Source of the DNA: Burkholderiales bacterium
Lineage (GTDB): Bacteria > Pseudomonadota > Gammaproteobacteria > Burkholderiales > SG8-39
NCBI GenBank assembly: GCA_965279075.1
Contig: CBDIHI010000012.1
Coordinates: forward strand, 1,030,388 to 1,094,387
DNA length: 64,000 bases
Reading direction: 5' to 3'
The position numbers were made by a program. Every line of letters starts with the position of its first letter. Within the stretch, counting starts at the first letter, position 1. This document shows positions 19,701 through 22,700 of the stretch, one piece after another.

Positions 19701-22700
19701 TCCTCGGGTCCGCGGATCCCGGGACGAGCCACGACGACATCTATGCCTGCGTGAACTGGTGTGCCGGCGCCGGAAAGCCGATCGTCGGCGGGCGCAACCT
19801 GTCGCTCTTGCACGACGCGTGGCGGGGCGGGGGGGAGGCCCTCGCGGGGGCGCTGGGGCAGGACGGGAACCTGTATAAGCTGCGCAGGTTCGGCAATCAA
19901 CTGATTATCCGAGGCAAGGACAAATGAAGCTATCCGACGTCGTCGCCGAATTCCTGGCCAGGGAAGGCATCGGGCACGTGTTCGCCATTTCCGGCGGCGC
20001 TTCGCTGCACCTCATCCATTCCATCGCCGAGGCAAAGGGCACCAGCTATGTCTGCCCGCAGCACGAGCAGGCCGGCGCCTATGCCGCGGACGCCTATGCG
20101 CGCGTCACCGGCGGGATGGGTTGCGCCGTGGCCACCAGCGGGCCGGGCGCGACCAACCTCATCACCGGGATCTGCAGTTCCTACTACGATTCGGTCCCCG
20201 TCCTGTACCTGACGGGGCAGGTCGCGAGCTTCCGTTCCAAGGGCGACACCGGCGTGCGGCAGATCGGCTTCCAGGAAACCGAGATCGTGGACATCTGCCG
20301 CACGATCACCAAGTACGCGGTGCTCGTGAAGGATCCCTATCGCGTGCGCTACGAGCTGCAGAAGGCCGTGGCGATCGCGAAGGCCGGCCGCCCGGGGCCG
20401 GTGCTGGTCGACATCCCCGACGACCTGCAGCGCATGGACATAGACCCGTCGAAACTGGTGGACTACGTACCCGAGGCCGGCTCGGCGCCCCCTCAGGTCG
20501 ACGAGGCCACGCTGCAGGCGTGCATCGAGGCCGTGAAAGGGGCGCAGCGGCCGGTGCTCGTCTATGGCTGGGGAATCCACCTCGCCAACGCCGAAGCCGA
20601 TGCGCGCGAGCTCGCGCGCATCCTCGGCGTCCCGGTCGCCATGACCTGGGCGGCCCTCGACGTGATGCCTGCAACGGACCCGCTTGCGATCGGCGGGTTC
20701 GGCACGCACGGCACCCGGTTCGCCAACTTCGCCGTGCAGAACGCCGACCTGGTCATATCCGTGGGGTCGCGGCTGGACACCAAGGCGACGGGCACGCCGC
20801 CTTCCACGTTCGCGCGCGAGGCCAAGCTCATCATGCTGGACATCGACCCGACCGAGATCGGCAAGTTCGAGCGCCTCAAGCGCAAGGTCGACGTGGCGAT
20901 CAGCGTCGACGCGGGCGCGTTCCTGCGCGCGTTCGCCCAGCGCGCGCGCGGCCAGGCCTTCCCGGATTTCTCCCCGTGGCTGGCGAGGATCGCCGACTGG
21001 AAGGCGCGTTACCCGGAGTGCCTGCCGGAGCACGCGGCCGAAGAAACCGTCAACCCGTACTGGCTGGTGAAGCAGCTCTCCTCGATCCTGTGCGAGGACG
21101 ACATCATCTTCTCGGACACCGGCTGCGCCCTTGCCTGGATGATGCAGGGGTTCGAGTTCAAGTCCGGGCAGCGTTTTTTCCACGCCTTCAACAACACCCC
21201 CATGGGCTACGGACTGCCGGGGTCGGTGGGCGCGAGCTTCGCGCGGCCCGGGCAGCGCATCGTCTGCGTCTCCGGGGACGGCAGCCTGCAGATGAGCATC
21301 CAGGAACTGGCCACCGTGGCGCGCCACAAGCTGCCGGTCAAGATCCTGCTCCTGAACAACCGCGGCCACGCGATGGTCAGGCAGACCCAGGAAATGTGGC
21401 TGGGCGGGAACTACTACGCGACCTCCGTCGACGGTGGGCTCGCCAACCCAGACTTTGCCGCGATCGCGCGCGCCTACGGGTTGCGCACGGAAACGCTCTC
21501 GCTGAACTCCGGCATCGCGTCCGGCCTCGGCCGCATCCTCGAGGGCGACGACCCTGCGTTCCTGAACATCGAGCTGGACCCCGACCACAGGGTCACGCCA
21601 CAAGTGAAATACGGCCGCCCCAACGAGGACGCCGACCCGCTGCTCGAGCGCGAGGAGTTCCTCGCCAACATGATCGTCAAGCCCCTGCCCGTTTCCCTTT
21701 CCAAGTAGCCGACAATGAACACACTCGACCCGATTTTCGAGGCGCTCGCCGAGAGCCCGAAGCTGCATGTCCGATCCTCCGCCTTCTATCGTCTATGCGC
21801 CGCGGCGACACGCCCGGTCGTGGAACAGCTCTTCGCGGGGGTCGAGCGGGTCTCGCAGCCGTTCGGGCCTTTCGGCAGCATCTCGATGCCCTACACGAAA
21901 ATGGGCGCGATCGACTCCATGGATCTGTTCGGGGTGGACGAGCTGATCATCTTCGCCTTCTACAACGCCAACCGCGCGCGCTACCGGCGCGTGCTCGACA
22001 TCGGCGCGAACCTCGGCCTGCACTCCATCGTGATGTCGCGGTGCGGGTTCGAGGTACGGGCCTTCGAGCCCGACCCGTGGCACTTCGGCATGCTGTCCGC
22101 GAACCTCGCCGCGAACGAGGCCGGCACGGTCACGCCCTTCAAGGCGGCGGTTTCCGTCTCGGACGGCGAGGCCCAGTTCGTGCGCGTGCTCGGCAATACC
22201 ACCGGAAGCCACCTCGCCGGCGCGAAGGACTCCTACGGCGAGAAGGAAGTCTTCACGGTCCCGATCCGCGCCGCGCAGCCCCTGTTCGAGTGGGCCGACC
22301 TGGCCAAGATCGACGCCGAGGGACACGAGAAGGAGCTGCTCCTCACCACCACGCGCGAGCTGATGCAGGAGCTCGACATCATGGTGGAGATCGGCAACCC
22401 CGAAAACGCGAAGGCGGTCTTCGCGCACTTCCAGTCGATCGGGGTGGGGATGTTCTCGCAGAAGGCGGGCTGGGGACGCGTCCAGCAGCTCGCCGACGTC
22501 CCGACCTCGCATCGCGAAGGCAGCCTGTTCATCAGCGCCAAGCCGGCCATGCCATGGTGAGCAGGCATCGGCGCCTGCGCGCAGCCGGAATGCGGCCGTG
22601 TCCGCGCTGCTGAGCACCTTCGCCCTGCTGGCATTCGCGTGGGTCCTGCACGTCCTGTGGTGGCGGGTCAGCGTGCCGGGGCACCAGATGGGCGCGCTGG

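Follow-up and report, generated by a model that had tools for sequence, protein, structure and literature searches.

YerE of Yersinia pseudotuberculosis and PpYerE are carboligases dependent on thiamine diphosphate (ThDP) and flavin adenine dinucleotide (FAD) that place an acetyl branch onto CDP-3,6-dideoxy-4-keto-D-glucose (CDP, cytidine diphosphate), and both, together with JanthE, are flavoproteins. More than 200 predicted YerE-like enzymes were reportedly listed by Krug et al. in 2024. In the YerE/YerF and ErwE/ErwF systems, the branching enzyme is paired with a reductase (PMC9306805). Characterized YerE-like enzymes accept keto-acid donors of C3 to C8; ErwE, MMAR_2332, and MygE take hydroxylated ones of C4-C8 in the making of erwiniose, caryophyllose, and gastriose (PMC9306805, PMC12247030). 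A structure of PpYerE is available (PMC12247030), as are those of the promiscuous JanthE from Janthinobacterium sp. HH01 (8rph/8rpi/8rpj), whose physiological substrate is unknown (PMC12188165). PMC12247030 gives the YerE-like, alphaKADH2 E1alpha/beta, and transketolase superfamilies as the known or proposed ketone-branching enzymes, places the first in the synthesis of envelope glycans and the other two in that of actinomycete antibiotics, and contains no description of them together. Here, we compare with these systems a 594-residue protein encoded at 19924-21708 of a 64-kb stretch of Burkholderiales bacterium DNA (hereafter the window; 64,000 nt, positions 1,030,388 to 1,094,387 of contig CBDIHI010000012.1, assembly GCA_965279075.1). 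Sequence and gene context support the view that this protein is a YerE-like ThDP sugar-tailoring carboligase and not an acetohydroxyacid synthase (AHAS) of valine and isoleucine synthesis. It is rather probable, in our judgment, that it acts as an acyl-branching enzyme on a nucleoside diphosphate (NDP)-4-keto-heptose and that the product is then reduced at the new ketone.

The gene is enclosed by a short-chain dehydrogenase/reductase (SDR) gene and a methyltransferase gene:

19097-19927, plus strand: classical SDR, candidate branch ketoreductase with a YerF-like role (Pfam adh_short, E = 3.5e-16)
19924-21708, plus strand: YerE-like ThDP carboligase gene (Pfam, NCBIfam, and Protein Data Bank [PDB] matches, neighbor-joining [NJ] tree, motif alignment)
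21715-22560, plus strand: FkbM-family methyltransferase (TIGR01444, 73 bits versus a cut-off of 37.7)

The central open reading frame (ORF) comprises 594 codons plus a stop, and its GC content at third codon positions (GC3) of 0.91 is in line with the other genes of the window, which has a GC content of 67%. All three Pfam ThDP domains were found in its product (TPP_enzyme_N, E = 4e-31; TPP_enzyme_M, 3e-35; TPP_enzyme_C, 2e-39), in agreement with the preliminary description of this DNA, which had reported a full-length protein resembling the large subunit of acetolactate synthase (ALS). That description had also placed the gene in translational coupling with a preceding SDR and ahead of an FkbM methyltransferase, and both neighbors bear out this arrangement: the ATG at 19924 overlaps the TGA stop of the SDR gene (19925-19927) to form ATGA, with a Shine-Dalgarno-like AAGGA located 5 nt before it. 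The ThDP motif (SGDGSLQM...LLLNN, of the GDG...NN pattern) and the catalytic, cofactor-activating glutamate in PQHEQ are both intact, so the enzyme is probably active. The protein probably contains FAD; its M-domain can be aligned with the part of AHAS and JanthE that binds this cofactor.

The leading NCBIfam matches are AHAS models, with the large-subunit model TIGR00118 at the top (E = 1e-132), which raises the question of whether a biosynthetic AHAS catalytic subunit of the IlvB/IlvI/IlvG type came to lie in a sugar operon by chance, or whether the protein is a catabolic acetolactate synthase. The window protein shares with AHAS (IlvB, IlvI, IlvG, and plant ALS) the fold, the ThDP motif, the catalytic glutamate, and 32-33% identity, the latter measured to both E. 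coli IlvB and IlvI, and its M-domain resembles the AHAS FAD-binding domain. However, the TIGR00118 score reaches only 443 bits against a cut-off of 538, and all of at least 17 AHAS equivalog models fell under their cut-offs, all but TIGR00118 far under. Among PDB entries, the protein ranked 8rph first (331 bits), followed by 5ahk (315 bits), which we take to be PpYerE of Pseudomonas protegens, plant AHAS (302 bits), and E. coli IlvB (298 bits). An NJ tree with 100 bootstraps was then computed on 82 sequences and 587 columns, using 75 homologs encoded on genome contigs, the E. coli proteins IlvB, IlvI, and Gcl, as well as JanthE, PpYerE, and Arabidopsis AHAS, the last three reconstructed from structure-search alignments. 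In this tree, the window protein, its orthologs, second-tier homologs, PpYerE, and JanthE formed one clade with a bootstrap of 99/100, and the AHAS proteins of E. coli (IlvB and IlvI) and Arabidopsis fell outside of it. The placement relative to IlvB/IlvI and YerE that the preliminary description had suggested thus put the protein on the YerE side. Within the clade, JanthE grouped with the second-tier, Acidobacteria-rich homologs and not with the window orthologs.

Alignment features separate the protein from AHAS in the same manner. A 6-residue insertion right before FQE (GVRQIGFQE in the window protein) is common to the window clade, PpYerE, and JanthE and is missing from AHAS and Gcl, and an MVRxxQEM(W/Y) segment stands in place of the AHAS QW motif, as in YerE and PpYerE, with which the protein also shares the three-domain decarboxylase-superfamily fold. 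The AHAS residue that recognizes the second keto acid, W574 (Arabidopsis numbering), is replaced by T, where PpYerE has F. Furthermore, RFDDR (D376-R377) of AHAS becomes RLDTK, GQHQMW becomes GCALAW (GNNQMW in PpYerE), and GGLGxMG becomes FNNTPMG (PpYerE retains GGLG), all of these replacements being kept across the orthologs and the last forming a signature conserved in every one of them. JanthE differs in another respect, since it carries a CDG ThDP motif in place of the canonical GDG of the window protein. As the preliminary description had stated, no regulatory small subunit was found: tblastn with E. coli IlvN and IlvH as queries gave no homolog in the 64-kb window or within 10 kb at 80 related loci. 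With synteny to sugar genes conserved in at least 12 phyla in addition to the missed cut-offs, the separate clade, the replaced acceptor-recognition Trp and Arg, and the YerE-type insertion, we regard an AHAS or catabolic acetolactate synthase as extremely unlikely, and the earlier proposal of an ALS-like protein with a role in sugar tailoring is supported. Xsc and glyoxylate carboligase were also considered as identities and were ruled out by far lower NCBIfam scores.

Relatives of the protein are widespread. More than 120 were found in metagenomes at 70-87% identity, going by "acetolactate synthase large subunit" where named, and orthologs at 54-85% identity occur across species-representative genomes of at least 12 phyla. 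Hosts include Nitrospiria, Bryobacteraceae, Opitutaceae, Chthoniobacterales, Desulfobacteraceae, Syntrophaceae, Anaerolineae, Dehalococcoidia, Planctomycetes, Saccharibacteria, Bacteroidota, Lentisphaerae, Omnitrophota, Binatia, Rhodospirillaceae (Tistlia consotensis and Marinibaculum pumilum, with 55% orthologs), and Burkholderiales, the last with two loci from metagenome-assembled genomes (MAGs) that are among the closest cluster relatives (L029 and L030, 76-85%; L numbers designate related loci). Clustering was applied to all ORFs of 27 related loci, where the ThDP gene is flanked by sugar-nucleotide genes throughout, and gave the following counts, which are lower bounds because several contigs are incomplete:

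ThDP enzyme: 27/27 loci
Classical SDR and FkbM methyltransferase (one blastp family): 26/27 loci
Methyltransferase 2: 23/27 loci
Extended SDR 1: 21/27 loci
E1alpha: 21/27 loci
E1beta: 20/27 loci
Cytidylyltransferase-like/PfkB fusion: 18/27 loci
SIS isomerase: 13/27 loci
Zn-dependent alcohol dehydrogenase: 12/27 loci

The SDR, FkbM, and ThDP genes adjoin one another in nearly every locus, and the overall gene order is variable. At L084 (71% ortholog), the entire set, including Nudix, E1alpha, and E1beta genes, lies on one strand, and the cassette is likewise collinear on a single strand at L086 (82% ortholog, GCA_038916875.1). More distant members of the clade likewise have sugar-nucleotide genes as neighbors, for instance NTP_transferase, GtrA, and glycosyltransferase family 2 (GT2) genes in Bryocella and, in a Clostridium, genes for NeuB, an epimerase, and a fused HAD-SIS protein. 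Modules for surface glycans that are mobile typically show such a patchy spread, here across at least 12 phyla, and the window cassette may already be included in the 2024 list of Krug et al. The full cassette (extended SDR 1, E1alpha/beta, a methyltransferase, the SDR, and the ThDP enzyme) also occurs in two MAGs of Candidatus Saccharibacteria (L008 and L024; Patescibacteria); for such reduced genomes and so large a tailoring pathway this is unexpected, and it could be real or a binning artefact.

In the window, the gene belongs to a nearly gap-free plus-strand operon of 21 genes at 8595-28038, with intergenic distances of -8 to +37 nt plus a single gap of 120 nt, as determined by a GC3 frame plot, translations, and domain searches. 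In DNA so rich in GC, several genes are missed when the longest ORFs are called. The frame plot revealed the genes at 11639-12637 (an SDR), 15117-16013, and 17302-18117 as well as E1beta, and moved the start of the HldE-like gene to 12637. Two products of longest-ORF calling were rejected on the same evidence, namely, a 543-residue "membrane protein" and a 743-residue "HldE-like" ORF whose N-terminal extension of 227 residues is a wrong-frame translation. Arg/Pro-rich wrong-frame read-through was seen at 11956-12637 and 29394-29648, with true starts at 12637 (HldE-like) and about 29649 (E1alpha). Upstream of the classical SDR, the operon contains the following genes:

8595-9290, plus strand: GmhA-like SIS-domain isomerase, at the head of the operon (Pfam SIS_2, E = 1.6e-8)
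9309-9848, plus strand: HAD phosphatase of GmhB-like size and subfamily (Pfam Hydrolase_like, HAD, PNK3P)
9861-10595, plus strand: transaldolase (TIGR02134, 350.6 bits versus a cut-off of 282)
10629-11642, plus strand: extended SDR 1, candidate NDP-heptose C4-dehydrogenase (Pfam Epimerase; PDB 6vo6/6vo8)
11639-12637, plus strand: extended SDR 2, GalE/epimerase-like (NCBIfam galE 161 bits and heptose_epim 120 bits, all under cut-off)
12637-14187, plus strand: bifunctional nucleotidyltransferase and PfkB kinase, HldE-like with reversed domain order (rfaE_dom_II, rfaE_dom_I)
14194-15120, plus strand: Gfo/Idh/MocA oxidoreductase (Pfam; PDB matches weak)
15117-16013, plus strand: extended SDR 3, RmlD-like (Pfam Epimerase and RmlD_sub_bind)
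16013-17302, plus strand: NDP-sugar dehydrogenase family protein (TIGR03026, 216 bits versus a cut-off of 190)
17302-18117, plus strand: class I methyltransferase 1 (Pfam Methyltransf_25 and Methyltransf_11)
18123-19100, plus strand: extended SDR 4, RmlD-like (Pfam Epimerase)

The isomerase, kinase, phosphatase, and nucleotidyltransferase would supply, according to family matches, the four functions of the route from sedoheptulose-7-phosphate to NDP-heptose. All heptose-route matches fall below the curated cut-offs, the HldE-like protein scoring 142 bits for rfaE_dom_I (cut-off 345) and 95 bits for rfaE_dom_II (cut-off 181), so that a heptose is only the putative sugar. In lincomycin synthesis, the transaldolase LmbR and an isomerase, kinase, phosphatase, and nucleotidyltransferase make guanosine diphosphate (GDP)-octose (PMC4351081, PMC12945683). 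The transaldolase of the operon recalls LmbR, and on the model of LmbR, N, P, K, and O an octose is a live alternative to a heptose (PMC4351081); we treat this lincosamide parallel as a lead. In the 27-locus comparison, a transaldolase stands beside the cassette only in the window and at L025. Methyltransferase 1 has no counterpart at any related locus and appears to be an insertion specific to the version of the operon found in this genome.

The ketone required for branching can be attributed, with some caution, to extended SDR 1. Its best PDB match is 6vo6/6vo8 (126 bits, aligned along the entire length, with 88 for the runner-up), presumably the GDP-heptose C4-dehydrogenase Cj1427. The likeness points to simple oxidation at C4 as the source of the ketone. 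Cj1427 oxidizes GDP-heptose to 4-keto-heptose (PMC10680097), and if the structures are indeed those of Cj1427, extended SDR 1 would likewise yield a 4-keto-heptose without 6-deoxygenation. The nucleotide may differ from that of the Cj1427 system, since the nucleotidyltransferase of the window is HldE-like and not HddC-like. A 4,6-dehydratase role was rejected for extended SDRs 1 and 2, which lack the T-D/E-E motif and have SSS(V/C)YG instead. The preliminary description had spoken of a keto-heptose made by upstream dehydratase-type SDRs; the heptose is in keeping with the GmhA-, GmhB-, and HldE-like genes, and the dehydratase is contradicted by this motif.

Since extended SDR 1 is part of the conserved core, the simplest chain of reactions would lead from NDP-heptose to a 4-keto sugar, followed by ThDP-dependent acyl addition, SDR reduction, and O-methylation. 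In this scheme, the GmhA-like isomerase, the HldE-like kinase/nucleotidyltransferase, and the GmhB-like phosphatase would convert sedoheptulose-7-phosphate into NDP-heptose, or possibly NDP-octose with the transaldolase, and extended SDR 1 would oxidize C4 to give NDP-4-keto-heptose. The ThDP enzyme would then decarboxylate a 2-keto acid and add the resulting acyl anion to the sugar ketone, forming a tertiary alcohol with an acyl branch, as its clade and the YerE precedent suggest. The coupled classical SDR would reduce the branch ketone in the manner of YerF, and the FkbM and other methyltransferases would O-methylate the product. The position of the window gene, in a nucleotide-sugar operon and joined by ATGA to an adjoining SDR reductase, resembles the YerE/YerF arrangement (PMC9306805). 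Pyruvate is the default guess for the donor, and a longer one is possible. The preliminary description had proposed a C2-branching or chain-extending step; a YerE-type sugar-tailoring enzyme is supported, with C2 as just one option for the branch, given donors of C3 to C8 (PMC9306805, PMC12247030). ErwE, MMAR_2332, and MygE, compared here by description, belong to the same enzyme class and also act by branching followed by reduction in cell-envelope glycans, but their clusters encode a pyruvate aldolase for the long donor; no donor-forming pyruvate aldolase was seen in the operon of the window, whose transaldolase is the only aldolase-type gene.

ThDP enzymes of this superfamily require a 2-keto acid donor, and the same operon encodes upstream an NDP-sugar dehydrogenase, with a TIGR03026 score over the cut-off, and a Gfo/Idh/MocA protein. 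The former could make a terminal carboxylate and the latter oxidize the neighboring carbinol, in which case the ThDP enzyme would take a sugar-borne 2-keto acid and, as a decarboxylase or ligase, shorten or rejoin the sugar chain rather than branch a ring ketone. We consider this very unlikely, given that the Gfo and dehydrogenase genes are confined to the subclade whose members reach 64% identity or more, whereas the ThDP, SDR, and FkbM genes are universal, and that we are aware of no precedent. Moreover, no YerE-like enzyme has been reported with a nucleotide-sugar donor (PMC12247030).

Several points weigh against acyl branching of an NDP-4-keto-heptose as the function of the protein. The case is built on sequence and gene context. 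To our knowledge, the characterized YerE-like enzymes are all assigned to CDP-3,6-dideoxy-4-keto-glucose and none to a heptose. The heptose-pathway matches are all under the NCBIfam cut-offs, those of the SIS and HAD proteins being generic, and the identity of 6vo6/6vo8 as Cj1427 is presumptive. Pairwise identities are nearly flat, those to PpYerE (34%) and JanthE (33%) barely exceeding the 32-33% to AHAS, so that the tree, the indel, and the motifs, rather than raw similarity, carry the placement. The tree itself is an NJ tree only, with three AHAS references and one outgroup, and YpYerE, ErwE, MMAR_2332, and MygE are absent from it. In addition, the analysis covered 64 kb of the genome, and any separate ilvB would lie outside this part. 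Finally, a second ThDP system is encoded nearby, and with an E1alpha/beta pair present, the YerE-like enzyme need not be the one acting on the ring ketone.

This second system lies just past the operon, behind two genes of the opposite strand:

28035-28520, minus strand: Nudix hydrolase (Pfam NUDIX, E = 5.5e-21)
28556-29602, minus strand: LPG_synthase_TM-family membrane protein (Pfam, E = 2.8e-38; 75% identical homolog in L003)
29649-30668, plus strand: stand-alone ThDP E1 alpha subunit, alphaKADH2-type (Pfam E1_dh; PDH_E1_alph_y 299 bits versus a cut-off of 394)
30695-31726, plus strand: E1 beta subunit (Pfam Transket_pyr and Transketolase_C; 299 bits versus a cut-off of 321)

The preliminary description had overlooked this pair (29649-31726), which belongs to the same conserved cassette and is also found at L084 (16901-19029) and L086 (6980-9173). 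E1alpha bears a GEG...NN ThDP motif (G(D/E)G...ENN pattern), and no Pfam match to E2/E3-type genes was found among the ORFs checked after E1beta (from 32236). At L086, a split transketolase (Transketolase_N and Transket_pyr/C) was also observed at 4688-6474, giving three ThDP systems in one sugar cluster. The window pair is comparable, by description, to the alphaKADH2 branching enzymes of aldgarose, avilamycin, and kibdelomycin (KbDH-alpha/beta), in that it is a stand-alone E1 in a sugar cluster and resembles pyruvate dehydrogenase (PDH) below the cut-offs. It differs from them in setting: the described members belong to antibiotic clusters of actinomycetes, and no YerE-like enzyme is reported alongside them (PMC12247030). 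Most likely, the pair adds a second C2 unit.

The roles could be inverted, with E1alpha/E1beta putting a C2 unit on the ring ketone and the YerE-like enzyme then taking a second electrophile, the two ThDP systems acting in sequence. This electrophile might be the new acetyl ketone, which would give a branched C4 side chain, or a terminal aldehyde, which would extend the chain. The pair stands beside the YerE-like gene in 20-21 of the 27 loci and in the same strand block at L084 and L086, it is PDH-like yet under the cut-offs with no adjoining E2 or E3, and C2 branching of keto sugars is a known activity of E1alpha/beta enzymes of the alphaKADH2 type (PMC12247030). Often there are two candidates for the reduction of the branch, namely, the classical SDR and a Zn-dependent alcohol dehydrogenase (12 loci), and the NDP-sugar dehydrogenase and Gfo-family oxidase of the operon could generate further carbonyls. 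On the other hand, no sugar with two ThDP-derived units is known, sequence does not reveal in what order the steps occur, and the window pair is located outside the main operon, past the two minus-strand genes. Overall, we judge the inverted order unlikely and retain acyl branching of the ring ketone by the YerE-like enzyme as the preferred function.

On the available sequences, three differences set the window protein apart from all characterized members, namely, a heptose-type sugar route, the active-site signature, and a constant association with E1alpha/beta. Compared with YerE, the operon is of the heptose type, with GmhA-, GmhB-, and HldE-like genes and a probable C4-dehydrogenase, and not one of CDP-3,6-dideoxyhexose genes. 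An E1alpha/beta pair is a further feature of the window. Neither the C4-branched sugar of R. palustris nor bradyrhizose was retained as a product, since nothing ties either to the cassette.

The remainder of the operon and a pair of more distant genes suggest how the finished sugar might be exported:

22598-23098 and 23091-23621, plus strand: two small membrane proteins (no Pfam match; conserved in L003, L012, L029, L007, L084)
23650-24426, plus strand: GT2 glycosyltransferase, candidate polyprenyl-phosphate sugar synthase (Pfam Glycos_transf_2)
24547-24963, plus strand: GtrA-family membrane protein (Pfam GtrA_DPMS_TM)
24971-26602, plus strand: frameshift-broken membrane-protein gene (frame plot; tblastx)
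26619-27320, plus strand: class I methyltransferase 2, cassette core (Pfam)
27358-28038, plus strand: class I methyltransferase 3 (Pfam)
38197-40671 and 40464-42941, minus strand: two paralogous membrane proteins of about 825 residues (partial YfhO/DUF6044 matches; the ORFs overlap by about 200 nt)

By family analogy, the GT2 and GtrA proteins would load the sugar on a polyprenyl-phosphate carrier, and the YfhO-like membrane proteins would then pass it to a glycan of the envelope at the outer face of the membrane. The GT2 (23650), GtrA (24547), and YfhO/DUF6044-like proteins (38197-42941, minus strand) recall CsbB/GtcA/YfhO extracytoplasmic glycosylation, and the last could be GT-C-type transferases that complete a GT2/GtrA/YfhO system. 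The likeness is one of families only, since the YfhO-like genes lie 12 kb off on the opposite strand and their Pfam matches are partial. The Nudix hydrolase of the cassette, which recurs at L003, L005, L006, L018, L022, L084, and L086, is possibly an NDP-sugar pyrophosphatase, and a Wzx-type flippase and an RmlD homolog are also found downstream of the E1alpha/E1beta pair. For the broken gene at 24971-26602, tblastx to the intact, single-frame homolog of L012 (about 4.5-5.7 kb) runs through three query frames, which indicates either a pseudogene or indel errors of the assembly; at L003, L029, and L084, this position is without a gene.

The left flank of the window holds the housekeeping genes pheS, pheT, and fabF, and the region is therefore chromosomal. 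Between the sugar operon and the YfhO-like genes, the GC content drops to 0.61-0.64 at 32000-38000, versus about 0.68 elsewhere, with several ORFs lacking family matches, and this part may be a separately acquired segment. An ORF with an HTH_38 domain (IS30-type N-terminus) is present within this low-GC region, at 37053-38075 on the minus strand. A TctC/Bug-family receptor gene was noted at 57567-58607 (minus strand); taken with the Burkholderiales MAG loci L029 and L030, it hints at a betaproteobacterial origin of the window.

We tentatively extend these observations to a broader proposal, which we see as possible but doubtful: with its Cj1427-like C4-dehydrogenase, YerE-like carboligase, stand-alone E1alpha/E1beta, reductases, and at least two methyltransferases, joined in some relatives by a split transketolase, the cassette would make higher-carbon sugars of a so far undescribed class, O-methylated several times and based on a heptose or octose, with two or perhaps three ThDP superfamilies forming successive C-C bonds on one nucleotide sugar and polyprenyl-phosphate export to decorate the envelope, in at least 12 phyla. 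Whatever its exact product, the label "acetolactate synthase large subunit" borne by the gene and its homologs misleads metabolic reconstruction as well as the prediction of herbicide and antibiotic targets. YerE-like and E1alpha/beta enzymes are sought as biocatalysts for chiral tertiary alcohols (PMC12247030), and a clade with a heptose acceptor and a distinct active-site signature would, if true, widen this toolbox. Both enzyme types acting on one sugar would, if confirmed, represent a new biosynthetic logic. If our reading is true, the family would mark a widespread, horizontally mobile pathway to C-branched higher sugars in environmental bacteria, with relatives in Acidobacteriota, Verrucomicrobiota, Nitrospirota, Chloroflexota, Planctomycetota, Patescibacteria, and others, and with products so far unseen.

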